Counted from the stretch's first letter, positions 737 to 16,660 are shown. The stretch is 64,000 nt of DNA from Bdellovibrionales bacterium (GCA_965205645.1 OZ242172.1:348633-412632); one strand, 5' to 3'. Made by a program: numbers and translations. The notes: a model not told the origin generated them from the sequence alone.

Positions 737-1288
737 ATGGGAACTTCAATATCTCAAGTATCTCCTGGTTCCGGCCCTGGATCTAATGAATGGTCTAACT
801 TCCAAAATGATATTTCATCTGGAAATATTACTCCAGATAAAGCTTTGTCAAGTGTAAAAGAAGCTTTTAAAGGGGAGTACGGTAATGAATATGTTAACAT
901 CATCGTAGATAAAGGTGTCTCTTTAATTGAAAACTTTGTTAAAAAATTCACTTCACCACATAATATTCCAGCTGAGGCTGCTTTTATTGTTCAAGGACGC
1001 AAGCTTCTAGCTCAACATCAATCAAATTCATTTTTAGCCGAACTAGCTCTTATGAAGGCAGCTGCTTGTTCTTCAATTGATGACATTGGAAAGAGAAAAG
1101 TAGCATTTTATACAAATTATTTAACGGGAGTTGTAGATTATTCCGTCTCAAGAGATTTAACAAAGATATTGGGGAATATCGGAATAAGTAATATCTCTAA
1201 ATTAGAGAGTTATATCAATAATGTAAAAAGAAAACTATCAGAGACAATAACTAAACAAAAAAGCCTTAAGGAAATTCTGAATGACTAG
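737..1288 (+). CDS. Hypothetical 183-aa soluble protein, first gene of the QueC-like operon (possible partner or substrate, QatB-like role)
   Basis: ORF with N-terminus MGTSISQVSPGSGPGS (Gly2, G/S/P-rich). The rest looks helical. Its stop overlaps the next gene's ATG by 8 nt (ATGACTAG). Confidence 0.6.
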   Translation: MGTSISQVSPGSGPGSNEWSNFQNDISSGNITPDKALSSVKEAFKGEYGNEYVNIIVDKGVSLIENFVKKFTSPHNIPAEAAFIVQGRKLLAQHQSNSFLAELALMKAAACSSIDDIGKRKVAFYTNYLTGVVDYSVSRDLTKILGNIGISNISKLESYINNVKRKLSETITKQKSLKEILND

Positions 1289-3068
1289 CTTTAAAATATT
1301 AGTAAATAGACAATTGACTTATCCTAAGATTGATAGTGACAATAATGAGATAGAAATTCCTTTAAGTGTTCAGTCACCTATATATAAAGATAATTTAAAA
1401 CCAATTTATCGTGGAAACTTAGAAAAGGTAACACCTGAACTAAGAGATTTTATAGAAGTTGCATCAGTTATCAATTATGCCGATCGTTATTGTATTAGAA
1501 AAGAGAGAGAAAAGTGGTGCAGAAATATTGAAATCAATATTTCTCTAAGATGCCCTGAAAAATTTAAATTAATTAAATCAGATTTAGAATTATGTCTTAC
1601 TATACTTAGTGGAGATAATTTTTTATTTAATGTAAATAAGATAGATAGTAACCTTTCTTATCCTTTGCGCTCTCGAAAAAATAAAAGAAAAAAAGAAATA
1701 CAAAAGCTTTTAGATCAACTTACTCATATTGTTCTAATCTCAGGAGGACAAGACAGTTCTATAGCTGCTTATGATTATCTTCAAAAAGGTAAGGTTCCTT
1801 TTTTTGTACGAATTGACACACATGATAAAGCCAATCCTCAAAAACTTCTGAAACAAGCAAATAAAGAAGGAGTTAATTACTTTTATTTGAATCAAAAGAT
1901 TACAAAGCTTGATGCGACTATATTTAAAGGAAATTCTTTCCCTAAAGAAACAAGCCAAAGATTGAGATCTTTTTACTTTTTATCAGTGGCAACAACAATT
2001 GCTGCTACCACAAATATTAAAGAGGTCAATATTAATGAAAATGGAATAATGGCTATACATTTACCTTTGGATATATCTAGATCATCTAGTTTTTCAACTC
2101 GTACAGCTTATCCACCATATTTGTATCAGTTTTCTCAAATAGTTCAAAAATGGCTTGGAATAGATGAGTTTGAAATAAGAAATAAATGGATTTTAAAAAC
2201 GAAAAAAGAGGTTATTTCCTCTGGTTTAGAAAATAAGCTTGAAAAAGTTATATGTAATTCAACTTCATGTGCTCATGCCGCTATAGTGCAAAATATTGCA
2301 AAAATTCATAAAAAGAAAATTAATTATATAAAATCAGATGGTAGTGATTTACATTGTGGTTACTGTTTTCCTTGCATATTAAGGCGAATCTCAATGTCTA
2401 ACTCTGGGTTAGGAGATAAAGATGTATTTTACGTGATGAATCCTTTTGGGGAAATGATTGTCGATGCTGAAACTTCAAAATTTAATTTTTTACAAGAGTC
2501 TAAATCAGCCATTTTGTCTTTAATCAGATTTAGTAAATTATTCCGAGAAAAAAATACAACTGAATTAACGTCAGAGTATCCGCAAATTTATGAATGTGCT
2601 TTTGCTCTTGATGACATTAATCTTGTGAATGATATTGTTGATATGTATAAAAGATTTTCAAATGAGGTATATCAATTTATATCACAAAAATCCCCAAGGT
2701 TACTTTTCCTATATGATGATGAAAAATCTAAGCTTGTTGATAAAATTATAAATTCAGTAGCAACCATAAATTCGATGGAAGAAATTTTAAATTCCTTTAA
2801 AATCGGTAACTGGAATGAACACTTTGAGAAAGAGTTGAAGACTGCCTATAGCTTAGTTCGTTATAGAATTCTTATAGCATTAGGCAATGATTTGATAAAT
2901 CAAAATCAGATTTTATTTTTTTTTAAGCAAGCTCTGGAATCAATTCTACCTCACAAAGCTGAAGATCGTAAAAGATTACAATTGAATATACAATATGGAA
3001 GAGAAGTAAAGAAAAAAATACTAAGAGATTGTAGCTGTCCTCCCTTTACAAGAAGAAGAATAGGGTAA
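1281..3068 (+). CDS. QueC-like PP-loop ATPase (7-cyano-7-deazaguanine synthase family) with ~150-aa N-terminal and ~215-aa C-terminal extensions; QatC/Cap9-like
   Basis: PP-loop ISGGQDSS at aa 153-160. Cys cluster C330 ... HC359GYC362FPC365ILRR resembles the QueC Zn site (C-x2-C-x2-C). At 595 aa it is far longer than housekeeping QueC. Confidence 0.75.
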   Translation: MTSFKILVNRQLTYPKIDSDNNEIEIPLSVQSPIYKDNLKPIYRGNLEKVTPELRDFIEVASVINYADRYCIRKEREKWCRNIEINISLRCPEKFKLIKSDLELCLTILSGDNFLFNVNKIDSNLSYPLRSRKNKRKKEIQKLLDQLTHIVLISGGQDSSIAAYDYLQKGKVPFFVRIDTHDKANPQKLLKQANKEGVNYFYLNQKITKLDATIFKGNSFPKETSQRLRSFYFLSVATTIAATTNIKEVNINENGIMAIHLPLDISRSSSFSTRTAYPPYLYQFSQIVQKWLGIDEFEIRNKWILKTKKEVISSGLENKLEKVICNSTSCAHAAIVQNIAKIHKKKINYIKSDGSDLHCGYCFPCILRRISMSNSGLGDKDVFYVMNPFGEMIVDAETSKFNFLQESKSAILSLIRFSKLFREKNTTELTSEYPQIYECAFALDDINLVNDIVDMYKRFSNEVYQFISQKSPRLLFLYDDEKSKLVDKIINSVATINSMEEILNSFKIGNWNEHFEKELKTAYSLVRYRILIALGNDLINQNQILFFFKQALESILPHKAEDRKRLQLNIQYGREVKKKILRDCSCPPFTRRRIG

Positions 3069-3071
3069 TTT

Positions 3072-3620
3072 ATGAATTCTGGAAAAAATGAAATCGTTAC
3101 TATATATTCTCATGTTGTATCACAAGTAATATTTATTTCTACATCGGGAATTGCTGCTGGAGTTACATTATTACAGGCAGGTGTCATTCAAACATCTTAT
3201 TTGTCACTGATACTTTCTTTTATACTCTTTGCCATTTCTCTTATATTAGGAGTTTTTGGCTTAACAACACTCCTTGGACAAGCAGATACGGGAAACCCTG
3301 ATATTCATAAGTGGATAGTTCGTTGGCCAAATTTAATTTCCATGTGTTCATTTGTATTTGGAGTGATCTTTTTTACATATTCATTATCTTCACATTTTTT
3401 TTTAAAGCCAATTGATAAAAACATAAAACCAATTAAAAAAATCCTTGTTGAAACTGTCAAAAAATCTAATCTTAATTGCTTAGTTGGTAATTTAAATAAA
3501 GAACAAAGGCTACTTCTAACTTACTTTATTGAGAAGTCTTTCCAAAATATAGTTTGCCAAGCAGTACAAGTTGATTTACTAAAAAAAATAGAGAAAAATA
3601 TTGATATCAATAATAAATAA
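3072..3620 (+). CDS. Small integral membrane protein (about 4 predicted TM helices plus a charged C-terminal tail); candidate effector of the QueC-like operon
   Basis: Hydrophobic stretches VVSQVIFISTSGIAAGVTLL, LSLILSFILFAISLILGVFGLTTLL and ISMCSFVFGVIFFTYSL. Starts 3 nt after the upstream stop. Confidence 0.6.
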   Translation: MNSGKNEIVTIYSHVVSQVIFISTSGIAAGVTLLQAGVIQTSYLSLILSFILFAISLILGVFGLTTLLGQADTGNPDIHKWIVRWPNLISMCSFVFGVIFFTYSLSSHFFLKPIDKNIKPIKKILVETVKKSNLNCLVGNLNKEQRLLLTYFIEKSFQNIVCQAVQVDLLKKIEKNIDINNK

Positions 3621-3808
3621 GGAATTCATGGTCATTTCAAGAGGAATTTTTACCACCTGATTCCAAACCTGCCATTTCTACTCATTTGCAATGGCTATGA
3701 TTTATGAGACTAAGAGTGAAATGTTGAATACTAAATTAAAAGAACAAAAACTAGCAGGATAGAGAGAATGTTAAATTATAATTTTAAGACAAAAGATAAC
3801 AGTAAAAA

Positions 3809-6373
3809 TTAGATAGTAACATTTTCTACATAACTCATGAAACTGCGGTCATTTTTAGAACTAGGAAATACTAAACTAACTGCATAAATTGGAAGTGCTT
3901 CTAAACCCTTGATCATTGTTTCTGGTAGTGCTTTGGAGGGATCAAGAGGGTATATCAGTAAAAGTCCTCTTTCTTTTGGTCGCTTCTCTCTTCTGAGTTT
4001 TGTATCAGTTGTGCTAATTTTAGTCATTTTCTTTCTATACTCGCTATAAGAGTCTGATTCTGGCTTTAGAATGTCCGCCATATCAACGGCTTCGTGCAAA
4101 GTTGGTACTAATGACCTAAGTGTTATATATTCTTTACCTTCTTGTGGTTTATCAAGTGAACTACGAACAGCTAAATAAACCTTTTCTCCAGAAGGAAGTG
4201 TATATTCTACTTTTCCTGACTTACTTGACATTAAACATACTGACCAATTTGTGAGTTCATCGTGTTTATTCAAATCAGCTATATAACGAATTCCAAGATT
4301 CTTGTTGAATCTAATGTGTTCTGTATTTAATTGGAAATTCTCAAGGAATTGAATTATATATTCTGAAGATACATTATGATACAGTATAGCATTTTTAAAT
4401 TCGTTAAAAATATATCTATTAGTTCTCTCTGCTTGATTTTTCAGTTTACTAAACAAATTTTCCACGGTTTTTCTATTTTTGTTTAGAATAGAAATATCAT
4501 CGATTTTCATAGTTCGAAATTGAATTTTAGAACCTGAATAGGTGAAACTAGATCTAACTGCTGTCCTCATTTTATTATTAGATGTTATCTTAAGGTTAGG
4601 AAAAGATCTTATTCTGACAGCAACATCAATAGGTCTTTCTTGATTTACTGCCATTGCATTAATTTCGTCACGAATCTCTTGTTCAACAGTTGCTAAGTTA
4701 TGGAAATTAATTATCATACTTTCTGAAACAAAAATTCTTGTTAAATCAACATATCCCTTTCGGTAGCCAAACCAACGACCCATTTGTAGAAGAGTGTCGT
4801 ATTGTTTTGTAGTTCTATCGAAATAACTTATTGTTAATCCTTCTATTGTTAGCCCTCTTGAGAGAGTATTTCCACCTATTACAATTCCCCAAAGAGGCTC
4901 TTTTCTATCAAAAGAAAGTCTGTCTGAAGATGCAGAGTTCTCTAATATTATTTCTAACTTATCAATAAAATTACGAACTTCTTTAAAAAACTGATTTGAT
5001 TTAAAAAAAATATCTTCTTCAAGAATAAATTTAGTTGTTACCTTATGGTCATCTTCAAGTATTCTATTGAATTCTTCAGGTAGTTCCTCATAATCATCAA
5101 AGGCTAATTGAAGTTCTTGAATATATTGTTGAATCCATTCATGGTATCTTTCATGTTCACTTATTAGATGGGATATATGCACAAGCATCATAATATGATC
5201 ATTTCGTTGACCTCTAAATAACCTTAGTACACCAGAAATTATGAAAGTCCTAATTGCTAATTTTAAGGATTCTGGAATAACTTTTTTACCATCAACAATA
5301 TTATCTTCATTTTCAGGGAGAGTTCTAATTACGGGTATAGGTCTCTTCTCATCATCTCCATTCACACCCATTCGACCAAAAAGTTCTTCTGGTCCAAAAT
5401 AGGTAGGAGGTTTTTCCAAGCAAATTAGAAAATCTCGTGGATAGATATCCCCATCTAAACTTCCATCTACAAGGATATTAGCGAAGGGAGTTGCTGTATA
5501 TCCAACATAACTTACCTTATCAAAATGATTAATTAGATCTCGTATCTTAGAATTGATTGCCGTGGGGTCTTGTTCAGGTTTATTTGTGTTAATACTTGCT
5601 TGGTCAGATTCATCATCAACTATCAAAGTAGCACAATTTTTAATATTTTCTTTATTTGCTTTAGAAATCCAATCATTGAATGCTCTTAATACATGTGTAT
5701 TCTTTTTAAGTACAACAAGTGCAAATCCGTCTTTGGATCCAAGAGCTCTGTTGGCTGTAACAGCTTGTTTTTTGTCAAAATCTCCTTTTTCATCAACTCT
5801 AGTTAAAGTCATACAAGCTTCTGGTTTAGGCCTTTCTAACTCCTCAACTAGTCTGGTTTGGGTTTGAAGCCTAAGATTATTATGCATTCCACTTAATACA
5901 ATGATTAATTTATAACCTTCATCAATGGTTTTTGCTATTACAGCGGAAAAGTTGGCTGTTTTACCACTCTGAATGTAGCCCAAAACTAACCCTTTACTTG
6001 TTAAAGGACGTTTTGACTTAGGTGGAACAAGATGTTCAACAATACTGTCAGAGGCTAAGTCTAAACTTTTAATCATCTCCTTAGTCCAAGGGTTCTTTTT
6101 ATTAAATAGATGTTCCTTAAGAAGATTCCAATGACTATCTTCTTTATCTCTAGGACCTTGATACCAACCTAAGTAATCTTGATTCTCTGAAAGAGCAACT
6201 GGAGCAACTTCTCCAGCTAGTATAGGATCTGATTCTTTAATTTTCTTGATTGCAGTTTCGACTTCTTCTTTCCCAAAGATATTTCTTAAGGCATACTCTG
6301 CATCTTCGAGAGTTTGCCCTAATGCTAATTTTTCTCTAATTGATGTTTCAATAAACTGGAATCGTTGATCCAT
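3809..6373 (-). CDS. Z1 domain-containing P-loop NTPase (restriction/defence-associated)
   Basis: GLVLGYIQSGKTANFSAVIAKTIDEGYKLIIVLSGMHNNLRLQTQTRL (Z1-type Walker A block), TLIVDDESDQAS (Walker B/DExD-like), GGNTLSRGLTIEGLTISYF (characteristic Z1 C-terminal motif). Confidence 0.8.
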   Translation of the reverse strand: MDQRFQFIETSIREKLALGQTLEDAEYALRNIFGKEEVETAIKKIKESDPILAGEVAPVALSENQDYLGWYQGPRDKEDSHWNLLKEHLFNKKNPWTKEMIKSLDLASDSIVEHLVPPKSKRPLTSKGLVLGYIQSGKTANFSAVIAKTIDEGYKLIIVLSGMHNNLRLQTQTRLVEELERPKPEACMTLTRVDEKGDFDKKQAVTANRALGSKDGFALVVLKKNTHVLRAFNDWISKANKENIKNCATLIVDDESDQASINTNKPEQDPTAINSKIRDLINHFDKVSYVGYTATPFANILVDGSLDGDIYPRDFLICLEKPPTYFGPEELFGRMGVNGDDEKRPIPVIRTLPENEDNIVDGKKVIPESLKLAIRTFIISGVLRLFRGQRNDHIMMLVHISHLISEHERYHEWIQQYIQELQLAFDDYEELPEEFNRILEDDHKVTTKFILEEDIFFKSNQFFKEVRNFIDKLEIILENSASSDRLSFDRKEPLWGIVIGGNTLSRGLTIEGLTISYFDRTTKQYDTLLQMGRWFGYRKGYVDLTRIFVSESMIINFHNLATVEQEIRDEINAMAVNQERPIDVAVRIRSFPNLKITSNNKMRTAVRSSFTYSGSKIQFRTMKIDDISILNKNRKTVENLFSKLKNQAERTNRYIFNEFKNAILYHNVSSEYIIQFLENFQLNTEHIRFNKNLGIRYIADLNKHDELTNWSVCLMSSKSGKVEYTLPSGEKVYLAVRSSLDKPQEGKEYITLRSLVPTLHEAVDMADILKPESDSYSEYRKKMTKISTTDTKLRREKRPKERGLLLIYPLDPSKALPETMIKGLEALPIYAVSLVFPSSKNDRSFMSYVENVTI

Positions 6374-6563
6374 GAATTTATTATAGCCTTCGTAGAGGTT
6401 AGTCTCAGGTTTTTAACTTATAATTAGCTAAGGCTTAACACTACAGACTTAAGTATAGATGTAGCAAGAAGTTAATTTATTTAAAAAATTACATCTTTGT
6501 AATTCTGGACTCTTATTTGTCTCAAAATGAACCGAAATTATTTAAACAATTGTGAGGTCAAGG

Positions 6564-6788
6564 ATGAATAGAACAGTTAAATGGCAACTTGGAAAAGTAT
6601 CTTGGTTTAATGATGGATCAGGAGAAGGTGTTATTCGCACAGAAACAGGAAGAGATTTTTATGTTCATTGTTCAGCTATTCAATCAAACAAAAAAAAACG
6701 ATTTTTAAAACCAAAACAAAAAGTAAAAATTCAGGTTTTAGATGATGAGTTTGCAAGACATATCACTAAAGTTTCTTTGAATGTTTAA
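6564..6788 (+). CDS. Cold-shock domain (CSD/OB-fold) protein with degenerate RNP motifs
   Basis: GKVSWFNDGSGEGVIRTETGRDFYVHCSAIQ aligns to CspA KWFN..KGFGFI...D.FVHFSAIQ. ATG at 6564 is preceded by GAGG. The track ORF starts at GTG 6552. Confidence 0.7.
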   Translation: MNRTVKWQLGKVSWFNDGSGEGVIRTETGRDFYVHCSAIQSNKKKRFLKPKQKVKIQVLDDEFARHITKVSLNV

Positions 6789-6818
6789 AATTATTTCTAA
6801 TTTTGGATATACCATCAT

Positions 6819-9800
6819 ATGGCGACACAAAAAAATATAAAAGAAAATTATCTATATAAATATAAGAATCCTCTTGAACTTGTCGTAGATAATACAGATT
6901 CAATAAAGAATCCAGCCTATTGGGAAAGCACTCTGTTTTCTGAAGTTTATCTGAATAATGATTTAAAAAGGGATTTTAATGAAAGATGGGATAAAGATTT
7001 TGATGATATTGTATTTGATGAAAATGGGAATACAAAAAAATCAGGATTTGCACACTTTTATAATGAGTTTAGAAACATTGCTCCAGATTTAAAAGCGCTT
7101 ACTAATAGAAAGCTTAGTGAAACAGACACAATTACAAAAATTATTGCGCCTATATTAAATGTTCTAGGTTGGTTTGACAAATGTGAAAGTAATGCTCAAG
7201 AACCCTATGCCGCAGAAACCTCTTTTACTATAAAAGGAAGGGGTATAGAAAAAGATAAGACATATCGTACTGACATGCTACTTGTTGATGACCATCGAGA
7301 GGCAACTTATATTTCTGAACAAGAAACTTCCGATCAAAGAAGAGGAGAAGCTAGACGATATTGCATTGTACCTCTTGAAGCAAAATACTGGAACCGAATT
7401 ACTGATCAAAAAGGTAATAAAAAATTTGATTCAAAAAGAGAGGATAAAAAGAAAGATGATACTGGAAGAAGCTTTTCTTTTAATGAACAAGTTTTAAATT
7501 ATATGAATATCCTCCATAAAAACTGGGGAATCGTTACAGATGGAAATACATGGAGACTAGTTCATTTGGAAATATCAGAGGAGGATTCAGAAAGATGTTT
7601 TGAATTTAAATTAGAATCACTTCTATCAAAAGAACAACATATTGGAGAGAGTAAAAACGATCACGGTGAATTTTTAGAACTAGCGAAATATTTCTATCTT
7701 TTCTTTGGGAAACCATCTTATGTTAAAGATGATATTGGAAAAGTTTTTATCGATGAAGTTTTAAAAGAAAGTCGCAAATACATTGATTCCATTGAAGAGG
7801 ATCTCACGGATCGATTTATTTCTGCGATGAATATTACTTGTAATGGCTTACTTAGAGCTGCTAAAGAAAATGGAACAATTACAAAACCCACAGAAGATGA
7901 TCTAAAATTGATCAGGACTGTGGCTGAAAGTCACTTATTTAATATTTTATTTATTAAATCCTGTGAATCTAGAAGCATTCTACCTACCAGAAATCCAGAT
8001 TATTACAACATTTCATTAACAAGAATTATTGATCGTATTAAAGATTTTGATCCAGAAAGATATAGAAAATCTAGAAGAGATAGAGACTATATTAATCAAA
8101 AGCTTTTAAAATCATTAAATGGAAGTAAATTTAAACCTGAAGGTACAAATCTGTATAAAAACCTCATTAAACTCACTGAAGTTATTCATGAAGGGACAGA
8201 GAAATATGATTATGGATTTGAAATCAAAGGATTTAAAGAAAGTGTTTTTTCAAAAATTGAGTGGAATTTTTCTAAGAAACATTGTCTTACAGATGCAGAA
8301 ATGGTTCAGGTTCTTTTTCAACTGGGATATTCAAAATCTAATAAAACCCTCCAAAGAAATTACCGACAAATTCCCTATAACTACTTTACACCTAGACAAC
8401 TCGGGTCAATCTATGAATCCTTCTTAGAATACCAACTTGATGTTGCTCAAGAGCCTATGGTTTACCTCAAAAAGGGAAAGCACAAACAGTGGATAAAACT
8501 CACAGCAGCTATTGAAAGAAAACTTAAAGGATGTGATCTTATTGTTAAAAACGGACAACTCTTTTTTACTCCTAATAATTCTGAACGAAAAGCCACAGGG
8601 AGTTACTATACTCCAGATTATATTGTTCAGTATATCGTAAGAGAAACAATCAGTCCTTTGTGTGAAGGAAAATCAAGTAAAGAGATTCTTGAGTTAAAAG
8701 TTTGCGATCCAGCTATGGGAAGTGGTCACTTTCTAACCGGAGCACTAAATTTTTTAACAAGAGAATATTTAAAAGCTTTAGAATTAGAAAAACCATCTGA
8801 AGATATACCAACAAAAGAAGAAGCTAAAAGAATTGTATTAGATAAATGTATCTATGGTATGGATATCAATCCAAGAGCTGTAAAATTAGCAAAAATGAGC
8901 TTATGGCTTGAGAGCGCTCATCCTGGAAAAAAATTAGAAAGGTTAGATGATCAACTATTTGAACAAGATACTTTAAAACTCGAAAAACCAATTGTTGAAG
9001 ATATTTCTGCTTATATCGGTAATCCGCCATGGGTGTTAAAAAGAGATAGTGATCTGACAGAAGAGTATAAAAAATACATACAACTTAACTATAAAAGCGC
9101 AGAAGGGTTTAAGAAAAATATTTTTTCTTTGTTTGTAGAAAGAGTTTGTAAGTGGTCAGGTGACTTTTCAGTTAATTTAGTTTTACCAGATAGATTATTA
9201 GTCACTCCAAGTTATATAGAAGCTAGAAAAATAGCATTAAAGTCATTTACAAATACTAAAGTGACAATTCTTCCAGAGGAAAGCTTTGAAGATGTGACTG
9301 CATCATATATAACTTTTCATCTCTATAACTCTAAAAATGATATTGGTAGTATCAAAATATATAGTTTCAAAGAAGACTCTATGAAAGTGCACTATAACTT
9401 AAACGAATTAGGTACTAATTTTAAAATAAATATCCATAGAAATCCATCTTTAGCTCCATTTATTGAAAAATTAAATAAGATAAGTAAACCTCTGTCTGAT
9501 AGTTATTTTTGTCATGTAGGAATGATGGTGAAAGATAATAAAAATGAATTCGCTAGGATTTCTGATAAAAAAAGATCCACAAGAATTGTTAAAGGGCATT
9601 GTTTAGGAAAATTAGAGGTTGATTTTACATATTTTTTTAATCCAAATTCAGTTACTATCTTTGGTGGAACTAAAAGAAAAAAGAAACATGCTGTTAGTCC
9701 AAAACTTTTAGTAAGAAAAACTGGAAATTATATTTTGTCATCTATAGACAAAAATTCTAAACAGCCAATATATGCAGAGCAATCAGTCTATTTAGTTATT

Positions 9801-10115
9801 CCTAAAAATCAAACGGCTACAGAAAATATCGATATAATTAATATATATTTGAATACTTTTATTCCTACACTATATTTTAGGAATGAGTTGATAACCAATC
9901 CAAACTCTTATCCTTATATTCAACAATATGATCTTGAACAGATTCCTATACCTAGAGTTTTATTAAATGATAAAATACTTATTTCAAAGATAAGGGATAA
10001 AATCAAAAAATGTAATAATAAATCACTTGCTTTAGATAGAGTTTGTACTCTTCTGTGTAGCAGCTTGGATCTACCATTAGAAAAGAGCGAAATGCTATTT
10101 AAAATAGCATCTTGA
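6819..10115 (+). CDS. Type IIG restriction-modification fusion (N-terminal PD-(D/E)xK-like nuclease, gamma-class N6-adenine DNA methyltransferase, C-terminal specificity region)
   Basis: GSYYTPDYIVQYIV (motif X), CDPAMGSGHFL (motif I, SAM binding), IGNPPW (motif IV). N-terminal TDMLLVDD ... VPLEAKYW is a candidate D...ExK nuclease site. 1098 aa in a single polypeptide. Confidence 0.8.
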   Translation: MATQKNIKENYLYKYKNPLELVVDNTDSIKNPAYWESTLFSEVYLNNDLKRDFNERWDKDFDDIVFDENGNTKKSGFAHFYNEFRNIAPDLKALTNRKLSETDTITKIIAPILNVLGWFDKCESNAQEPYAAETSFTIKGRGIEKDKTYRTDMLLVDDHREATYISEQETSDQRRGEARRYCIVPLEAKYWNRITDQKGNKKFDSKREDKKKDDTGRSFSFNEQVLNYMNILHKNWGIVTDGNTWRLVHLEISEEDSERCFEFKLESLLSKEQHIGESKNDHGEFLELAKYFYLFFGKPSYVKDDIGKVFIDEVLKESRKYIDSIEEDLTDRFISAMNITCNGLLRAAKENGTITKPTEDDLKLIRTVAESHLFNILFIKSCESRSILPTRNPDYYNISLTRIIDRIKDFDPERYRKSRRDRDYINQKLLKSLNGSKFKPEGTNLYKNLIKLTEVIHEGTEKYDYGFEIKGFKESVFSKIEWNFSKKHCLTDAEMVQVLFQLGYSKSNKTLQRNYRQIPYNYFTPRQLGSIYESFLEYQLDVAQEPMVYLKKGKHKQWIKLTAAIERKLKGCDLIVKNGQLFFTPNNSERKATGSYYTPDYIVQYIVRETISPLCEGKSSKEILELKVCDPAMGSGHFLTGALNFLTREYLKALELEKPSEDIPTKEEAKRIVLDKCIYGMDINPRAVKLAKMSLWLESAHPGKKLERLDDQLFEQDTLKLEKPIVEDISAYIGNPPWVLKRDSDLTEEYKKYIQLNYKSAEGFKKNIFSLFVERVCKWSGDFSVNLVLPDRLLVTPSYIEARKIALKSFTNTKVTILPEESFEDVTASYITFHLYNSKNDIGSIKIYSFKEDSMKVHYNLNELGTNFKINIHRNPSLAPFIEKLNKISKPLSDSYFCHVGMMVKDNKNEFARISDKKRSTRIVKGHCLGKLEVDFTYFFNPNSVTIFGGTKRKKKHAVSPKLLVRKTGNYILSSIDKNSKQPIYAEQSVYLVIPKNQTATENIDIINIYLNTFIPTLYFRNELITNPNSYPYIQQYDLEQIPIPRVLLNDKILISKIRDKIKKCNNKSLALDRVCTLLCSSLDLPLEKSEMLFKIAS

Positions 10116-10155
10116 ATCTTTATAGATTTTATGAATCTTGCTCAGATTTCAATAG

Positions 10156-10560
10156 TTTTTTTATCTAATTAGTATTAGTTTAGAAATAAGCTTTTTTGTT
10201 TCCAATAGAGTAATTAGTAAACTTGATTGCATTCTGTATACAACTATACTTAGCCCTAAAAGGAATATTGGTGATTTAATTTATATTTATACTATATTTC
10301 TGAATTCTAGTTATGCCATAAAATGGTTTTCTAAAAATACGATTATTGAAGGTTACACATGGTAGAGCTCACAACTTGGCTTACCGTTACCATCTCTTGA
10401 GGAAGTCAAGAGTCATCCTCTTTATAAAAAGATTATAAATTTAGGTAAACATCTTTATAGTGAGAAAAGATCTACACTAACAATAGATGAAATAAAATTA
10501 GTAGATGAATTTTATAATTCGTTCACGTTAAATGGAGTCAAACTAAATTTAGCTCCTTAA
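10156..10560 (+). pseudogene. Decayed C-terminal (specificity-domain-like) remnant of a second Type IIG/MTase-type gene
   Basis: One frame reads ...IYIYTIFLNSSYAIKWFSKNTIIEGYTW*SSQLGLPLPSLEEVKSHPLYKKIINLGKHLY...LAP*. It has an in-frame TAG at 10363-10365 and no start codon. The pattern parallels the C-terminus of the upstream enzyme (IYLNTFIPTLYF...LEQIPIPRV...). Confidence 0.45.
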
Positions 10561-10787
10561 TGTAAAAACAATGTATTTTTTAGATACCATCTTGGCGGTG
10601 TCTAACGTATACAACATATTTAGTTCCCGTACTCTCTACCATTTATGAATTTTTCAATATTTGATCACCAGTTAAAATAGAGAGCTAATTTTTATTAAAA
10701 TTTCCTTTGCTATTTTAAAATTATAATTTTTAGTAAAAACTGCCGATTACTCATCTATAATCTTAAAAAAATTAGTGAGATAAAAAA

Positions 10788-12794
10788 ATGAAAAATCATC
10801 GGTATTTGACAAAATCACGCTTTAAACTTGGGTTGGAGTGTCCAACAAAACTCTATTATACAAAAAAGCCAGAATATTCAAATCAAACAAAGGATGACCC
10901 CTTTCTTTCTGCTCTTGCAGATGGAGGTTATCAGGTTGGCGAACTTGCAAAGTTATACTTTCCTAATGGACATAACATCACAACGCTTGATTCTGAAGAA
11001 GCAGAAGCACAAACGCTGAACCTGTTACAGCAAGATGAAGTGATTATTTATGAACCTGCTATTAAATTCAAAAATCTTTTTATAAGGGTTGATGTCTTAG
11101 TTAAAAAAGGTAATTGCTTTCAACTCATTGAGGTAAAATCCAAGTCATTTGATACAAATAAAGAAAAACCATTTTTAAGTAAAACAGGAACGATAAGATC
11201 AAGTTGGAAACCCTACTTATACGATATCGCTTTTCAAAAATATGTCCTGACAAGTGCTTACCCTGAAGCTTCGGTTACTTCCTATTTAATGCTGGTAGAT
11301 AAAAATATAAAATGCCCGATTGAAGGTCTAAATCAGAAATTTAAAATTATTAAAGATAAAAATAATAGAAAAGGAATTAAAGTCTCTAATACTCTACCTA
11401 AGGAATGTTTAGAGGAGAAAATATTGATACAAGTTCCTGTGGATGAAGAAATTCAGCTTATTTATGATGGCAAAGATTCAAAAGAACAAACAGAGAGAAG
11501 CTTTTTTGATAATATTATATTCTTAGCTGAGAAATATGAAAAAGACGAAAAAATAGTATCAGACATTGGATCAAAGTGTGCAAAATGTGAATTTACCTGC
11601 TCAAACGAAGAGGAAAAAAGTGGCTTCAAAAGTGGTTTTAAAGAGTGTTGGTCATCAAAACTAAATTGGTCTGATAAAGACTTTAAAGATGAAAATGTTT
11701 TAAGCATTTGGAGTTTTAGAAAAAAAGATGAACTAATAAAACAAGGAAAAATAAAGTTAGCTAATCTAGTTAAAGAGGATATAGCTCCTAAAGAAGATAA
11801 AAAACCAGGTATATCCGCCAGCCAAAGACAATGGTTGCAAGTGGAAATGGCTCAAAAAAAAGAGACGAAACCTTTCTTGGATGTTCCAGGGTTGAAAAAC
11901 GAAATGGACAAGTGGGTATTCCCGTTACATTTTATTGATTTTGAAACAACAAAAGTTGCTTTTCCTTTTAATAAAGGTCGTAAGCCCTATGAAGGAGTCG
12001 CTTTTCAATTTTCTCATCATGTAGTCTATGAAGACGGAACAGTAGAACACGCTGGACAATATCTAAATACAAAACAAGGTTTTTTTCCTAACTATGAATT
12101 TGCAAGACAACTAAAGAGTGAGCTTGAAAAAGATAAAGGCACTATATTTAGATATGCTAGCCATGAGAATACATACTTGAATAAAATCTATTGTCAGTTG
12201 TTAGAAGACCAAAGCAACATTCCAGACAGAGAGGCTCTTTGTGAGTTTATAAAATCCATTACAAAATCTGATAAATCTAGTCCTGAAAAATGGGAAGGTG
12301 ATAGATGTATGGTGGATATGTTTGAGCTGGTAAAAAGATTTTTTTATGATCCTTATACCAAAGGCTCTAATTCCATTAAGCAAGTTCTTCCTGCTGTTTT
12401 AAATTCCTCAGAGTTTTTACAGAAAAAATACAGTAAATCTATTTATGGCTCTTCAGGAGGTATAAAAAGTTTAAATTTTAAGGACTGGAAATGGATTGAT
12501 TGGAAAGAGGGAAAGATTATTAACCCTTATAAAATGCTACCTAAGATGTTTCAGGATGTATCTGATAAGGATATGGAACTCTTATCAGAAGAGAATGAAC
12601 TATCCGATGGTGGAGCGGCTTTAACTGCTTATGGAAGAATGCAATTTAGTGAAATAACCGAGTATGAAAAAAGAGAGCTTGAATCCGCTTTACTTAAATA
12701 TTGTGAATTAGATACACTTGCAATGGTTATGATTTACGAAGCTTGGCGGGATATGTTAGATACTAAATTAAAAGAAAACAAAATAGCTGGGTAA
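10788..12794 (+). CDS. DUF2779-type protein: N-terminal Cas4/RecB-like PD-(D/E)xK nuclease fused to a C-terminal RNase H-fold (DnaQ-like) exonuclease-like domain
   Basis: N-terminus YLTKSRFKLGLECPTKLYY (typical DUF2779 start), FIRVDVLV...QLIEVKSKS (D...ExK), CAKCEFTC Cys cluster, HFIDFET (DxE) and CELDTLAMVMIYEA (distal Asp). Confidence 0.7.
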   Translation: MKNHRYLTKSRFKLGLECPTKLYYTKKPEYSNQTKDDPFLSALADGGYQVGELAKLYFPNGHNITTLDSEEAEAQTLNLLQQDEVIIYEPAIKFKNLFIRVDVLVKKGNCFQLIEVKSKSFDTNKEKPFLSKTGTIRSSWKPYLYDIAFQKYVLTSAYPEASVTSYLMLVDKNIKCPIEGLNQKFKIIKDKNNRKGIKVSNTLPKECLEEKILIQVPVDEEIQLIYDGKDSKEQTERSFFDNIIFLAEKYEKDEKIVSDIGSKCAKCEFTCSNEEEKSGFKSGFKECWSSKLNWSDKDFKDENVLSIWSFRKKDELIKQGKIKLANLVKEDIAPKEDKKPGISASQRQWLQVEMAQKKETKPFLDVPGLKNEMDKWVFPLHFIDFETTKVAFPFNKGRKPYEGVAFQFSHHVVYEDGTVEHAGQYLNTKQGFFPNYEFARQLKSELEKDKGTIFRYASHENTYLNKIYCQLLEDQSNIPDREALCEFIKSITKSDKSSPEKWEGDRCMVDMFELVKRFFYDPYTKGSNSIKQVLPAVLNSSEFLQKKYSKSIYGSSGGIKSLNFKDWKWIDWKEGKIINPYKMLPKMFQDVSDKDMELLSEENELSDGGAALTAYGRMQFSEITEYEKRELESALLKYCELDTLAMVMIYEAWRDMLDTKLKENKIAG

Positions 12795-12801
12795 AAGTTG
12801 A

Positions 12802-13326
12802 TTAACGGTATGTTTTGGGTTTTTTACATTTAATAGAATTTTTCTTTATAACACAAGTATTCTGCGTCTTGGTTCCCATATGTGTGGAATCCTTATAAAA
12901 AAAACTGTTTTGATCCCATCGCACATATGTAGTGATAGCTCCATAAGTGGGAATTTTAATCCATTTTAAAACTTTGTTATCTTTTACAAGAGTAAAATAA
13001 AGGTTTCCCCACCAGTTTTTTTCATATTCAATATAAATTATTTTCTGTGAAGTATTGAGAGGATTCGGACAAACTGTAATATCCGGGTTTTTATACTGTT
13101 TCAGATAATGCGCTTTCTTTGATTTGGAAAGGGATTTTGATTTAACAAGATTATCATAATGGGCATTCAGTTGTTCATTAAATTTTTCTTTAAATGTCTC
13201 TAATAAAGGGGCTGGTGTTTTCATTTCTTTTGTAGTGCAAAAAGATTGCTGAGATAAAGCCTTATGGGTTGAGAATAAAACAGGTATACAAAAGAGAATG
13301 AATTTAGAATAATTCAATAGAGGCAT
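12802..13326 (-). CDS. Hypothetical secreted protein
   Basis: The ORF from internal Met gives the signal-like N-terminus MPLLNYSKFILFCIPVLFSTHKALS. This start sits directly downstream of the ATPase stop (13328). No family recognised. Confidence 0.45.
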   Translation of the reverse strand: MPLLNYSKFILFCIPVLFSTHKALSQQSFCTTKEMKTPAPLLETFKEKFNEQLNAHYDNLVKSKSLSKSKKAHYLKQYKNPDITVCPNPLNTSQKIIYIEYEKNWWGNLYFTLVKDNKVLKWIKIPTYGAITTYVRWDQNSFFYKDSTHMGTKTQNTCVIKKNSIKCKKPKTYR

Positions 13327-13327
13327 T

Positions 13328-14467
13328 TTAAACAATATCTCCTTTCCATAACTTTTCAAGAAATTTTTCCCAGGGAAAAATTTTAATGTTGTCCTTTGTT
13401 ACACGCTTTACTGAATCAAGAGAAACAACTATATATTGTTCTATCAGTTTTTCTTCTTTTAAAGCTCTGATCCCCTTGAGATGCTTATCTTGAACTAATT
13501 CAGTTGATTTGATTTCAATTGCGACTTTGTTGCCAATGATAAGATCCACTTCAGATTGTGATGTGGATCTCCAATAAGCCATACCAAAAAGTTTTCTGGA
13601 ATAACTAAGGTAAGCTCGTACCTCCAAAATAATAAAATGCTCAAAAGCTTTTCCAAAAAGCTCGCTTCTTTTCTTAATTACACCTCGCTGGCAAAGAGCA
13701 TTAACAACCCCTACATCAAAAAAATAATACTTTGCCCTTGTGATTGCTTTTCTTTTTCTTGTTTTTACATAGCCTGCTAACGAAAATCCCAGCAAAGTGT
13801 CATTCAATATTTCAATATAATTTTTCACAGTACCTGGAGAAGTTTGTAAATCCCTAGAAAGGTTTTCATAATTTATTTCCTGACCATTAGAAAGAGCGAT
13901 TAAATCCAAGAACTCTGCAAAAGCTTGAACATTTCTTGTAAGAGATTCATTTTGTATTTCCTCCCTCAAATAAAGACTGATATAGGCATTTAATTCCTCC
14001 TGATAGTCAGAAGAATTGTAAATAGAAGGAAGTCCTCCCCGATTGAGATATTTCATCAAGTTGAATTGAGGAATTTCTGACCAAGAAAGAGGAAACATGT
14101 TTGCCTGCCAAGCTCTTCCAGCAAGTAAATTCACAGCCGGTTTCTTCATTTTTCTGGAACTACTTCCTGTCAGAAGAAAACGATATCCCTTTTTTTGAAT
14201 CAACCTATGAACTTCGTCTAAAAGTGTAGGCTGTTTCTGTATCTCATCAATAACAATTACTTTTTCTCCTGGACTGTTTTCCTCTTCTAGTATTTTAGGT
14301 CGCTTTAAAAGGCGTCTGTAGGTTTCTGCATCCAGAAGATCATAGATTCTGGCCTCCTTCAAACTTTGTTGAATTAAAGTTGTTTTTCCCGTTGCCCGAG
14401 GGCCAAAGAGGAAAAAAGATTTTTTCTTAAGAAGTTGTCTTAAATCCAATTTTCTTTTGTAAAACAT
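13328..14467 (-). CDS. AAA_14/DUF4143-type ATPase (P-loop ATPase, wHTH-like middle region, C-terminal PD-(D/E)xK-like module)
   Basis: Walker A GPRATGKTT, Walker B VIVIDEIQ, LLTGSSSRK, C-terminal SEVDLIIGNKVAIEIKS. Paralog of 15100-16278, 56186-57331 and 57529-58665. Confidence 0.8.
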   Translation of the reverse strand: MFYKRKLDLRQLLKKKSFFLFGPRATGKTTLIQQSLKEARIYDLLDAETYRRLLKRPKILEEENSPGEKVIVIDEIQKQPTLLDEVHRLIQKKGYRFLLTGSSSRKMKKPAVNLLAGRAWQANMFPLSWSEIPQFNLMKYLNRGGLPSIYNSSDYQEELNAYISLYLREEIQNESLTRNVQAFAEFLDLIALSNGQEINYENLSRDLQTSPGTVKNYIEILNDTLLGFSLAGYVKTRKRKAITRAKYYFFDVGVVNALCQRGVIKKRSELFGKAFEHFIILEVRAYLSYSRKLFGMAYWRSTSQSEVDLIIGNKVAIEIKSTELVQDKHLKGIRALKEEKLIEQYIVVSLDSVKRVTKDNIKIFPWEKFLEKLWKGDIV

Positions 14468-14733
14468 ATTTTCTCTTTGTTAAAATCCACAACATAGTTG
14501 TTGATTTTCATTATTTTCAACAACTTAATTATGGATTTTCAAATCTATTTTGTCAAGATTTTACCATTTCTTTTGAGTCCAGATAGGAAGGAAAAGCTTT
14601 TTTTCACTATCTTTTTAAAGATAATCAAACATTTAGACCGCCATTTTATAGACCACTTTTATCTGTTTTTTAACTTCCATCAATTCTGGATTTTCAAATA
14701 GAATCGGTATAAAGTATAAATAAGGAGGAAACT

Positions 14734-14943
14734 ATGAAAAGTAGAAACTGGCAATGTCCTAAATGTAATCACCATGCCTGTGATGTTGACAAAATTTCAA
14801 CCACAGGTGGAATGCTTACAAAATGGCTCAACTTACAAAGTAAAAAATTTTCCACGGTTACTTGCAAAAAATGTAAATATACAGAGTTATATAAAGCCAC
14901 GACCAATCAATTAGAAAATATATTTGATTTTCTCTCTGGATAA
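14734..14943 (+). CDS. Small zinc-ribbon protein
   Basis: CPKCNHHAC ... CKKCKYTE (two CxxC pairs). Strong SD AAGGAGG 5 nt upstream of the ATG. Confidence 0.6.
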   Translation: MKSRNWQCPKCNHHACDVDKISTTGGMLTKWLNLQSKKFSTVTCKKCKYTELYKATTNQLENIFDFLSG

Positions 14944-15099
14944 ATACAAACAAGCTCTTCTAAAAAAGAGAGTAATTTATGACAAAATTAAAGGCATATA
15001 GTGTGGATGGTTTTTTACATTGCCAGTGTAATTAAAGAATCATATAAACTATTTGACTTGCATATATTCCGTGGATTATCATGATAATACACGAAATAG

Positions 15100-16656: not shown

Positions 16657-16660
16657 AGTG

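Follow-up and report, generated by a model that had tools for sequence, protein, structure and literature searches.

A DEAD-Z1 protein from a Bdellovibrionales bacterium as the probable motor subunit of a composite restriction-modification locus

To our knowledge, H.CglI, which is the H subunit in CglI/NgoAVII restriction enzymes, is the sole DEAD-Z1 motor that has been studied biochemically, and the Type IIG enzymes known so far act alone and without ATP. The accessible portions of Toliusis et al. 2018 (PMC5861437) describe H.CglI as a DEAD-Z1 motor with its DEAD domain beginning at the N-terminus of the protein, give the structure of its C-domain (6f1s), and name a Q-type Walker A and a DDExD motif as the hallmarks of such motors. 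The same portions describe the Type ISP enzymes LlaGI and LlaBIII, in which nuclease, SF2 motor, methylase, and recognition domain lie in one chain (PMC5861437). For other Z1 proteins, operons that join MORC/paraMORC, Z1 helicase, RE-fold nuclease, AIPR, and Dcm/Vsr genes are set out in the available text of Iyer et al. 2008 (PMC2292703). Here we analyzed a 64,000-nucleotide stretch of DNA from a Bdellovibrionales bacterium (the window), in which a Z1-domain NTPase had been predicted from the sequence as standing without its usual partners. The claimed 854-aa open reading frame was borne out on the minus strand, with the following parts:

3809-6373, minus strand: DEAD-Z1-Z1C motor protein, putative H.CglI-like subunit (854 aa; Pfam Z1, E 1.5e-62)
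6077-6373, minus strand: N-terminal extension, aa 1-99 (small helical region, linker, W-rich conserved block)
5270-6076, minus strand: DEAD (N-core RecA) domain, aa 100-368, with Walker A and Walker B
4598-5269, minus strand: Z1 (C-core RecA) domain, aa 369-592 (Pfam range), with the H/H motif and motif VI
3812-4597, minus strand: predicted H.CglI-type "Z1C" DNA-binding domain with insertions, aa 593-854, from fold comparison of a predicted model

[quoted passage not shown] The Pfam Z1 match (PF10593, aa 369-592) was far beyond chance, and the REBASE-derived PADLOC model Helicase_II ("Type II helicase domain protein") scored 151 bits (E 1.2e-44). All four motifs quoted in the original prediction were located: GYIQSGKTANF at aa 132-142, VLSGMHNNLRLQTQTRL at aa 159-175, DDESDQAS at aa 253-260, and GNTLSRGLTIEGL at aa 501-513. 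The Walker A and B blocks, which had been placed in the Z1 domain, both sit in the preceding DEAD (N-core) domain. Walker A is IQSGKT (aa 134-139), with glutamine in the place of the first glycine (xQSGKT) as in DEAD-Z1 motors, and Walker B is DDESD (aa 253-257) followed by a QASINTNKPEQDP loop, giving the DDExD-plus-loop arrangement; Q135 and K138 of the former and D253, D254, E255, and D257 of the latter were invariant in 28 subfamily sequences. The same 28 sequences kept the H/H motif of the Z1 C-core (H393/H399) and both Q530 and R533 of motif VI. This last motif, QMGR (aa 530-533), fits the QxxR motif VI in the available text of Toliusis et al. 2018 (PMC5861437), and the surrounding DTLLQMGRWFG fits the pattern DThhQXuRhFG in that of Iyer et al. 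2008 (PMC2292703). The Z1 family is a large one, and the search for Z1 homologues returned 7,938 of 8,000 scored candidates at E <= 0.001. Compared to H.CglI (632 aa), the 854-aa protein has extra insertions in its C-domain and an N-terminal extension of ~100 aa that has no counterpart in H.CglI and in which W70, W82, and W96 were invariant (alignment A1).

The C-terminus, described earlier as ~300 aa without a recognized motif, comprises 262 aa (593-854) and has a recognizable fold. An AlphaFold2 model of aa 585-854 (pLDDT 89.1, pTM 0.88) was aligned by VIA-align to 6f1s_A with Z 9.9 (rmsd 3.4 Å, 138 of 146 residues aligned; runner-up Z 2.9), and 6f1s was also the top match in Foldseek (probability 0.99, E 2.1e-3). 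According to this model, the C-terminal 262 aa fold as the non-catalytic, DNA-binding C-domain of H.CglI. By sequence, 6f1s had no detectable match to the Z1 protein, and searches of PDB chains with the protein and its family profile gave nothing useful. Structure prediction and Foldseek had been suggested as the way to find a PD-(D/E)xK or HNH nuclease in this region; they returned the 6f1s fold instead, with no structure of either nuclease type near the top of the fold searches. EcoRV gave a Foldseek E of ~1 with probability 0.01, and no nuclease exceeded Z 2.9 in VIA-align. The proposal that the protein is an independent modification-dependent nuclease, with its C-terminal domain as the effector, is disfavored by a C-domain that is predicted to be non-catalytic and of the H.CglI type.

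The Z1 gene is divergent from a CSD / Type IIG-like gene pair and convergent with a neighboring operon, as had been stated; the operon is QatC-like and ends at 3620. The features beyond the Z1 gene, with all three partners encoded at 6552-12794, are:

6374-6551, no strand: divergent intergenic region between the Z1 and CSD genes, with a candidate promoter-like site inside
6552-6788, plus strand: small divergent cold-shock-domain (CSD) protein (78 aa; Pfam CSD, E 1.7e-9)
6819-10115, plus strand: Type IIG-like enzyme (1098 aa; Pfam Eco57I, N6_Mtase, TaqI_C)
10116-10787, no strand: non-coding gap (672 bp) where relatives carry ASCH-like and radical-SAM genes
10788-12794, plus strand: DUF2779 protein, proposed nuclease partner (668 aa; Pfam DUF2779, E 9.6e-21)

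The intergenic stretch spans 6374-6551 if the CSD gene starts at GTG 6552, and 6374-6563 if it starts at the ATG chosen earlier. A candidate promoter-like site at 6380-6408 on the minus strand matched 10 of 12 positions; the number of such sites in 6374-6551 (12, compared to 14.7 ± 3.6 in shuffles) was not above chance, and when 3500-7000 was scanned for promoters and terminators, the counts did not exceed those of shuffled sequence. A low-GC island, with tRNA-Glu and tRNA-Lys at its borders, holds the Z1 locus together with the Qat-like operon and two PDC-S01 genes. The usual Z1 partners are missing, as the original prediction held: neither a C5-methylase nor Vsr was found in the whole 1.56-Mb genome, and a control search for the C5-methylase family (PF00145) found it in 9 of 14 genomes. 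AIPR and DUF4420 were likewise not found in the 1.56-Mb genome, a weak negative as the control genomes were silent for both families, and none of the six genome matches to HATPase_c_3, three of them above cut-off, was near the Z1 locus. In CglI, too, the motor is encoded apart from the nuclease with a methyltransferase adjoining, and we considered membership in the CglI/NgoAVII type. It was rejected: the ten proteins of 737-16278 contain no PLD or B3-like domains of an R subunit, and the genome has no PF00145 match. CglI is partnered by a PLD+B3 R subunit and a C5-methylase, whereas the Z1 locus has Type IIG-like, CSD, and DUF2779 proteins.

Sequence and modeling indicate that the 1098-aa protein has what defines a Type IIG enzyme, a nuclease, an N6-adenine methylase, and a recognition domain in one chain. 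Its layout is an N-terminal PD-(D/E)xK nuclease, a gamma-class N6-adenine methyltransferase (motif I DPAMGSGHF, motif IV NPPW), and a TaqI_C-type target-recognition domain. BpuSI, DrdV, MmeI, and PglX have this layout in common with it and match by sequence in the methylase and recognition parts; the family profile matched CamA 7lni (E 2.3e-64) along with PglX, DrdV, BpuSI, and MmeI. The model of the N-terminal part (pLDDT 82.6) resembled the nuclease domains of HsdR (3h1t, Z 9.7), BpuSI (Z 8.9), and DrdV (Z 7.2). In the 20 sequences of alignment A3, D152 and K189 were invariant and E187 was conserved in 90% or more, and all three residues were invariant in the 19 sequences of A5. PglX is without nuclease motifs and works with BREX partners, which are absent at the Z1 locus. 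Directly upstream of the Type IIG-like gene and in the same orientation, a CSD orthologue was found in all 14 distinct related loci, and again in 26/26 metagenome loci that belong to the same Type IIG subfamily. The metagenome relatives were obtained with a smaller alignment (A6); a scan with the single protein returned no relatives.

The 668-aa protein, the only DUF2779 in the genome, consists of a Cas4-like Fe-S PD-(D/E)xK nuclease and a DEDDy-type 3'-5' exonuclease. It matched PF11074, its D-ExK triad and DEDD exonuclease residues are in place, and D102/E115/K117, C18/C264/C267/C287, and D384/E386/D510/Y638/D642 were invariant. The accessible text of PMC3985635 and PMC13621843 classifies DUF2779 in a 3'-5' exonuclease clade with a PD-(D/E)xK domain. 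From their motifs, both partners look active: in the Type IIG-like protein the motifs for nuclease and methylase are intact, as are both nuclease sets in the DUF2779 protein. The original prediction had passed over the gene at 10788-12794 as the likely nuclease partner, and it had also missed the nuclease domain of the Type IIG-like protein itself and a radical-SAM/ASCH-like gene pair in relatives.

Fusions of Z1 and DUF2779 accounted for 12 of the best 120 Z1 homologues, with DUF2779 at either protein end. The DUF2779 protein of the window is homologous over its full length to the Z1-fused modules (P0062, E 6e-26; P0040, E 2e-24), which are of a short form (~500 aa) and 25% identical to the long form of the window. 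DUF2779 matches occurred in 81 of 401 phylum genomes. Long forms without Z1 are frequent in the phylum (full-length and 42-73% identical for most of the matches listed), and unrelated defense genes often adjoin these Z1-less genes. The closest DUF2779 to that of the window (73%) lies in a locus (L129) with CSD, Type IIG-like, ASCH-like, and radical-SAM genes and without Z1; the form in the window differs from that of its nearest Z1 relatives, which marks the locus as mosaic. Complex prediction for one domain combination only, the full DUF2779 protein and aa 1-330 of Z1, gave a score of 0.00 against a mark of 0.32, a result that bears on binding in neither direction.

A Z1-centered sample drawn from 401 phylum genomes and a genome-contig scan provided 14 distinct loci with context. 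CSD and Type IIG-like genes lay beside the Z1 subfamily in every one of them, and DUF2779 in 12 (the exceptions were one 16-kb contig and one decayed locus). The Z1 gene had been called stand-alone; it belongs instead with another set of partners, strongly conserved and encoded within the window, and the suggested co-occurrence analysis with Eco57I-type methyltransferases and CSD proteins came out in favor of linkage. With these constant partners beside its Z1 relatives, the set looks like an undescribed variant of an anti-virus restriction system. When identity to the window copies was compared across loci, Z1 co-diverged with the Type IIG-like protein (Spearman rho 0.77, n=13) and with CSD (rho 0.67, n=12) and not with DUF2779 (rho -0.06, n=12), correlations that are descriptive only as the loci are related to one another. 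Two findings together were to count against the original prediction, a C-terminal region without a nuclease fold and a lack of conserved linkage to any neighboring gene; the first was observed and the second was not. Its alternative of an NTP-dependent restriction partner for the Type IIG enzyme is supported by the linkage, by the co-divergence, and by the wider Z1 family, in which none of 78 loci carries a CSD, Type IIG-like, or DUF2779 partner; the alternative of an independent nuclease is not supported.

We consider it probable that the Z1 protein is the ATP-driven dsDNA-translocase H subunit of a composite restriction-modification system at 3809-12794. Against such a system stand the Type IIG-like enzyme, which has its own nuclease and could restrict alone, and the DUF2779 long form, which is common without Z1 and does not co-diverge with it. 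Moreover, 6 of 21 phylum genomes and at least three long metagenome loci had the CSD / Type IIG-like core but no Z1, which makes Z1 an add-on and not a core part. These observations bear on a different arrangement, two systems side by side, in which the CSD and Type IIG-like proteins (with radical SAM and ASCH-like proteins in relatives) are self-sufficient while Z1 and DUF2779 make up a separate helicase-nuclease that never contacts the Type IIG-like enzyme physically and acts alone or finishes cut DNA, as RecBCD does after restriction. The conserved nuclease domain of the Type IIG-like protein and the occurrence of the core without Z1 would fit this arrangement, as would the variation between loci in how Z1 is ordered and oriented with respect to the core, and the Z1-DUF2779 fusion, a complete helicase-nuclease in one polypeptide. 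We nevertheless judge it unlikely: the Z1 subfamily was never apart from the CSD / Type IIG-like pair in the 14 Z1-centered loci, Z1 co-diverges with this pair and not with DUF2779, and an autonomous Z1 + DUF2779 module would be expected elsewhere too.

In 21 wider-family loci that we analyzed, the partners named in the original prediction were the right ones, in agreement with the accessible text of Iyer et al. 2008 (PMC2292703): AIPR in 13/21, C5-methylase in 9/21, and GHKL ATPase in 13-20/21. DUF4420, a separate PD-(D/E)xK protein, was encoded directly downstream of Z1 in 20/21, so that in this family the motor and its nuclease come, as a rule, from separate genes. At the Z1 locus, DUF2779 fills this DUF4420 slot as a probable functional replacement. 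The best-scoring named family for the Z1 protein was MzaC (338 bits in PADLOC, 391 bits in NCBIfam), with shared architecture from ~aa 60 to the C-terminus; the Mza system reportedly goes back to Gao et al. 2020. The 391 bits fall far short of the NCBIfam MzaC equivalog cut-off of 1500, and none of the Mza-type partners (GHKL HATPase_c_3 ATPase, DUF4420, AIPR, C5-methylase) is present at the Z1 locus. In MzaC and MORC/paraMORC operons, likewise, the PD-(D/E)xK nuclease is encoded apart from the motor.

The 12-13 of 14 relatives of the locus with contigs that reach far enough carry a radical-SAM + ASCH-like gene pair, and a free-standing ASCH-like gene was present in 13/14. The pair was not found in the window or the genome; tblastn with the proteins of relatives gave a best E of 0.013 against the window and 0.07 against the 10116-10787 gap, and no relics of the radical-SAM, ASCH-like, or 239-aa genes were recognized in the gap, where the only blastn matches were 22-34 nt long. 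An open frame of 64 codons at 10366-10560 had no match among the loci compared. The window locus may be a reduced or partly disabled version. A decaying remnant, in which the pair was lost and the locus no longer works so that the Z1 gene is intact in sequence and without a role, appears highly improbable. Such decay would agree with the small genome (1.56 Mb), with the mosaic locus and its DUF2779 form unlike that of the nearest Z1 relatives, and with the pair's absence, which among 15 loci (the window and its 14 relatives) can be demonstrated in the window alone; all four genes are full length, however, with every invariant catalytic residue kept, and the truly decayed relative L122, in which the Z1 gene is split and the Type IIG-like gene truncated, is unlike the window locus.

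ASCH domains adopt a PUA-like fold and have been associated with the reading of modified bases. Fusions of ASCH to Z1 (N-terminal in P0017 and P0021, C-terminal in P0100) and the free-standing ASCH-like gene of relatives are what would be expected if the locus were a modification-dependent (Type IV-like) motor system, with Z1, ASCH readers in relatives, and the DUF2779 nuclease directed against foreign base modification. This reading resembles the second alternative of the original prediction, with the nuclease being DUF2779 and not the C-terminal domain, which according to its model is no nuclease. We regard it as very unlikely, since the window has no ASCH gene or ASCH fusion, the free-standing ASCH-like family is below the Pfam ASCH threshold (best E 0.004), and obligate linkage to an active-looking methyltransferase better fits self-marking than attack on modified DNA. 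Precomputed Pfam entries gave ASCH for P0021, P0024, and P0026. BLASTP detected no similarity of the Z1-fused extensions to the free-standing ASCH-like protein or to the product of a ~140-aa gene that adjoins Z1 in three loci, and no domain was assigned to the C-terminal extensions of P0012, P0013, P0028, P0036, and P0045.

In the composite system that we favor, the Type IIG-like enzyme and its small CSD partner would recognize the sequence, mark self DNA at N6-adenine, and contribute one PD-(D/E)xK nuclease. The Z1 motor would bind DNA through its Z1 and C-terminal domains and, by analogy with H.CglI, translocate, burning ATP as it moves along unmodified DNA. It would deliver or activate a nuclease, which may be the DUF2779 protein, the nuclease domain of the Type IIG-like enzyme, or both, and foreign DNA would be cut and degraded. 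What the domains are, that their catalytic motifs are intact, that the genes are linked by conservation, and that fusions occur are observations; translocation, the binding partners, the order of events, and the anti-phage function are inferred. The same four activities occur in Type ISP enzymes, namely PD-(D/E)xK nuclease, SF2 dsDNA translocase, gamma-class N6-adenine methylase, and target recognition. In contrast to Type ISP, the motor here, of the DEAD-Z1 class, is a polypeptide of its own, the methylase and not the motor carries the nuclease, and a second nuclease (DUF2779) and a CSD protein are extra. MANTIS/Gao_RL shares the concept of methyltransferase self-marking with a separate helicase-nuclease effector, and its proteins include the AAA+ loader MtsA, MtsB, and the SauUSI-like PLD-helicase MtsD in the accessible text of its preprint (10.64898/2026.09.23.753747). 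As a named system it was rejected for this locus: the proteins are unrelated, and those in the same text are without Z1, CSD, and DUF2779 (10.64898/2026.09.23.753747). A literature search, with most subscription journals beyond its reach, found no published description or name for this gene set.

To date the gene set is confined to genomes of the Bdellovibrionota type and to related contigs from metagenomes. A tentative reading, which we hold as possible though rather unlikely, is that the window carries a stripped-down member of an undescribed multi-gene defense system in which a Type IIG-like enzyme and its dedicated CSD protein go with a DEAD-Z1 motor and a Cas4-like/DEDDy nuclease, to which the full version adds a DNA-acting radical-SAM enzyme and an ASCH reader, perhaps writing or reading a second, non-methyl DNA mark. 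If true, no restriction system before it would have included a radical-SAM step, and no earlier Z1 motor would have driven an enzyme of the Type IIG kind; the arrangement would amount to a Type ISP enzyme in split form, and the natural "minus radical SAM" form in the window would define the minimal restriction core. The gene set also gives a lead on a radical-SAM + ASCH-like pair with a tie to restriction-modification. Were the locus two unrelated systems, the finding would be ordinary. The compact four-gene, 9-kb locus raises the question of whether a separate motor can make an ATP-independent enzyme type translocate. The second nuclease is exchangeable, and the natural fusions point to proteins that work together, which would give the widespread, uncharacterized DUF2779 proteins a first functional context. 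The Z1 subfamily would be the familiar motor on a quite different chassis, an N6-adenine Type IIG-like enzyme as opposed to a PLD/B3 nuclease and C5-methylase.

The Z1 gene is divergent from the CSD and Type IIG-like genes and convergent with a QatC-like operon, as originally noted. The features around it are as follows (window positions).

737–3620, + strand, Qat-like operon of three genes (183 aa, a 595-aa QatC-like PP-loop enzyme, and 182 aa)
3809–6373, - strand, Z1 gene, an uninterrupted ORF of 854 aa
6552–6788, CSD gene, divergent cold-shock domain (E = 1.7e-9)
6819–10115, Type IIG-like protein of 1098 aa, Eco57I/N6_Mtase/TaqI_C
10366–10560, + strand, stop-to-stop open frame of 64 codons between the Type IIG-like and DUF2779 genes
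10788–12794, DUF2779 gene, ∼670-aa form
12802–13359, 185-aa ORF adjoining the AAA_14/DUF4143 genes, no family match
13328–14467, - strand, AAA_14 + DUF4143 ATPase gene, PADLOC candidate system PDC-S01
15100–16278, + strand, AAA_14 + DUF4143 ATPase gene, PADLOC candidate system PDC-S01
16582–16733, - strand, neighboring tRNA-Glu(ttc) and tRNA-Lys(ttt) genes that bound the low-GC island on the right

All four motifs originally named were located in the Z1 protein: GYIQSGKTANF (aa 132–142), VLSGMHNNLRLQTQTRL (aa 159–175), DDESDQAS (aa 253–260), and GNTLSRGLTIEGL (aa 501–513). The Walker A and B blocks are present, but not in the Z1 domain to which they had been ascribed; because Pfam Z1 (PF10593) spans aa 369–592 (E = 1.5e-62), both belong to the preceding RecA-like domain. 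The 262 residues C-terminal of the Pfam Z1 domain carry no Pfam assignment. H.CglI, the motor subunit of the CglI restriction enzyme, consists of three domains: a DEAD domain (N-core RecA), a Z1 domain (C-core RecA), and a C-terminal domain that binds DNA and has a unique fold (PDB 6f1s). It translocates on dsDNA by ATP hydrolysis and operates in an R2H2 complex with a nuclease encoded by a separate gene (PMC5861437). Its hallmarks are that Q replaces G in Walker A, that Walker B reads DDExD and leads into a loop, that Z1 opens with an H/H motif, and that motif VI is QxxR (PMC5861437). All of them occur in the window protein, as IQSGKT, DDESD, H393/H399, and QMGR (530–533), and each was invariant in an alignment of 28 Z1-subfamily members. 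DTLLQMGRWFG matches the helicase-class signature DThhQXuRhFG of Iyer et al. 2008 (PMC2292703). The PADLOC 'Type II helicase domain protein' and MzaC models matched with E = 1.2e-44 and 338 bits, respectively; NCBIfam MzaC gave 391 bits where its equivalog cut-off is 1500, so that, judged by sequence, the protein is a relative of MzaC and not MzaC itself.

The C-terminal region (aa 585–854) was modeled from an 88-sequence alignment with a pLDDT of 89.1 and a pTM of 0.88. A Foldseek-independent comparison with 48,161 PDB chains yielded one clear match, the H.CglI C-domain 6f1s (Z 9.9, rmsd 3.4 Å, 138 of 146 residues aligned; runner-up Z 2.9). Foldseek also placed 6f1s at the top (probability 0.99, E = 2.1e-3) and returned no nuclease at meaningful probability. 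At the sequence level the match to 6f1s is only 12% identical, and searches with the Z1 protein sequence do not recover that structure. Since the model matches 6f1s and no nuclease, the region is predicted to be the DNA-binding 'Z1C' domain of the DEAD-Z1 family, enlarged by insertions; the modeled fold thus speaks against the suggestion that it is a nuclease effector.

The gene had also been described as stand-alone, a view that did not survive comparison with related loci. Among the best 120 homologues (39–83% identity), 12 carry Z1 and DUF2779 in one chain of 1,360–1,450 aa, with DUF2779 N-terminal in P0040 and C-terminal in P0062 and P0103, and the window DUF2779 protein aligned full length with the fused modules (E = 6e-26 and 2e-24, 25% identity). 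Within the phylum, 24 of the 401 genomes searched had the Z1 family, and 15 of these hold the close subfamily (at least 42% identity). We compiled 14 distinct Z1-centered loci with context from the phylum flanks plus two loci of a species-genome scan (L002 and L116, which share a contig, were treated as one locus, and a 2-kb contig plus two fragments were excluded), and gene content was determined by ORF calling with clustering and by tblastn. In all 14, the CSD gene immediately preceded the Type IIG-like gene. DUF2779 was present in 12 and missing only from a 16-kb contig and from a visibly decayed locus whose Z1 gene is split. Genes of ∼130 aa and ∼470 aa (radical-SAM) occurred in 13 and 12 of the loci, with misses at contig ends. 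Identities to the window copies gave rho values, descriptive only because the loci are related, of 0.77 for Z1 versus Type IIG-like (n = 13), 0.67 for Z1 versus CSD (n = 12), and -0.06, i.e., no correlation, for Z1 versus DUF2779 (n = 12).

Sampling from the Type IIG side gave a complementary picture. The Type IIG subfamily was present in 21 of the 401 genomes, plus two weak methylase-only matches, and Z1 was absent from six of the 21. A metagenome scan centered on the N-terminus of the Type IIG-like protein recovered 26 subfamily loci, every one with the CSD gene; Z1 was present in 13, three long loci lacked it, and many others were too short. The remaining 25 metagenome loci, without a CSD gene, comprised 24 distant relatives and one 1.2-kb fragment. 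Because the core sampled in this way includes Z1-less loci, Z1 is an add-on to the CSD/Type IIG-like pair.

The Type IIG-like protein contains methylase motifs I (DPAMGSGHF) and IV (NPPW), and its family profile matched CamA (7lni, E = 2.3e-64), BseCI, PglX/BrxX, TaqI, DrdV, BpuSI, and MmeI through the methylase and recognition half. In a conserved N-terminal block, the stretches EAKYW and TDGxxWRL hold D152 and K189, both invariant, and E187, which at least 90% of the sequences retain. A model of aa 1–350 (pLDDT 82.6) resembled nuclease domains of the HsdR fragment 3h1t (Z 9.7), BpuSI (Z 8.9), and DrdV (Z 7.2). This fold match, together with the methylase and recognition half, points to a full Type IIG layout with a nuclease of its own. 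The main competing explanation would have such a Type IIG module be self-sufficient, with Z1 and DUF2779 forming an independent or merely downstream helicase-nuclease; we regard this as unlikely, though to be taken seriously.

The window DUF2779 protein retains D102/E115/K117, D384/E386/D510/Y638/D642, and four cysteines in the Cas4 pattern (C18, C264, C267, and C287), in agreement with published classifications that combine a Cas4-like PD-(D/E)xK domain with a 3'-5' exonuclease (PMC3985635, PMC13621843). Two forms exist, ∼500 aa in the nearest Z1 relatives (68–71% identity) and ∼670 aa in the window, and the window copy is closest (73%) to one that resides in a Z1-less locus. The ∼670-aa protein is widespread in the phylum: 81 of the 401 genomes gave DUF2779 matches, and the majority of those listed cover the full length at 42–73% identity. 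The ∼670-aa form in the phylum often neighbors SIR2, reverse-transcriptase (DRT-like), OLD, and McrBC genes (including L131–L134). The ∼670-aa protein may be a free-standing or promiscuous defense nuclease.

From the domain identities, intact motifs, linkage, and fusions, we consider that the Z1 protein is probably the translocase subunit, powered by ATP, in a composite restriction-modification system; translocation, protein contacts, the order of events, and a defense function of the locus are what we infer from these observations. The Type IIG-like enzyme and the CSD protein would recognize a short sequence and methylate host copies; unmethylated DNA would engage the Z1 motor, which would travel along the duplex and have the DNA cleaved and degraded, whether by the DUF2779 nuclease, by the nuclease domain of the Type IIG-like enzyme, or by both. 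Such a system would resemble CglI in having a motor separate from the nuclease and Type ISP in its set of activities, as if that enzyme had been split into several chains. A Type IV-like mode of action could draw on the fusion of ASCH to Z1 in the relatives P0017, P0021, and P0100, but it fits the window poorly and seems quite improbable.

A radical-SAM (∼470 aa) and ASCH-like (∼130 aa) pair, often with a ∼75-aa gene, is conserved in relatives (L110–L121, L129, L130, L135, and L139–L162) and joins the core in 12–13 of 14 with sufficient contig reach, whether or not Z1 is present. In the ∼130-aa family, 13 of 15 members gave subthreshold matches to Pfam ASCH (best E = 0.004), and the family profile gave a weak one to 2dp9/1wk2 (E about 0.01); the radical-SAM family is distantly PA0069/Rv2578c/SPL-like. 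A radical-SAM step in a restriction-modification module might introduce a second DNA modification, or it might serve repair or reversal. None of the three genes was found in the window (tblastn best E = 0.013), the radical-SAM and ASCH-like proteins of the closest relative had no match in a search of the whole genome, and the gap at 10116–10787 (672 bp), where relatives carry these genes, held no recognizable relic. The open frame at 10366–10560 matched nothing among the loci compared and is probably non-coding. The four genes left (Z1, CSD, Type IIG-like, and DUF2779) are all intact; we read the locus as a natural reduced version, a disabled version being less likely, and a dead remnant appears very improbable.

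The genome (G000) is a single 1.56-Mb contig with an estimated completeness of 91.75%. It is smaller than every same-family genome listed (1.9–4.2 Mb), yet keeps a multi-system defense island. The Z1 locus lies in a low-GC stretch (about 0.27–0.35, versus about 0.40 just past 16.5 kb) that also contains the Qat-like operon and the two AAA_14/DUF4143 genes, and this stretch is a typical defense island. Beyond the tRNA pair, GC climbs from about 0.31 to 0.40. The QatC-like enzyme scored 194 bits with NCBIfam QatC (cut-off 280) and E = 6.8e-51 with PADLOC QatC, and the 182-aa protein matched DUF420 (membrane) weakly; this operon was conserved beside the Z1 subfamily in none of 14 related loci. 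The divergent AAA_14/DUF4143 genes matched PDC-S01 with E = 3e-59 and 9e-61.

Neither PADLOC (2023) nor NCBIfam (June 2026) lists any of these proteins as components of a common system, and no description of the gene set was found in the full texts searched, a collection with few of the subscription journals. MANTIS/Gao_RL, the nearest recent system, was ruled out as the identity of the window system, its proteins being unrelated. The locus probably encodes a restriction system that depends on ATP and uses a DEAD-Z1 motor, in a form for which we found no description.

G000 carries a single Z1 gene and, 4.4 kb away, its only DUF2779 gene. No C5-methylase (the control search was positive in 9 of 14 genomes) and no Vsr were found in its 1.56 Mb; searches for AIPR and DUF4420 were also blank, a weak result because control genomes were silent for both. 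Of six HATPase_c_3 matches, three exceeded the cut-off, and none of the six lay near the Z1 locus. Conversely, the CSD, Type IIG-like, DUF2779, ∼130-aa, and radical-SAM genes were absent from all of the other 78 loci of the species-genome scan (Z1 identity 29–38%). A Pfam scan of two genes each side of Z1 in 21 of these found DUF4420 (putative PD-(D/E)xK) directly downstream in 20, and as neighbors AIPR in 13, HATPase_c_3 in 13, C5-methylase in 9, and an ankyrin-sigma70 fusion in 7, so the usual partners originally named hold for the wider family. In the fusion loci (Mza-like operons L005, L010, L021, L025, L029, L069, and L072), an ankyrin-repeat protein is joined to a complete sigma-70 (regions 1.2, 2, 3, and 4) upstream of the GHKL ATPase gene, where other Mza-like operons have the C5-methylase. 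A Z1 motor with a separately encoded RE-fold nuclease is the rule of the Z1 family; in this subfamily the nuclease slot is held by DUF2779, and an N6-adenine enzyme takes the place of the C5-methylase.
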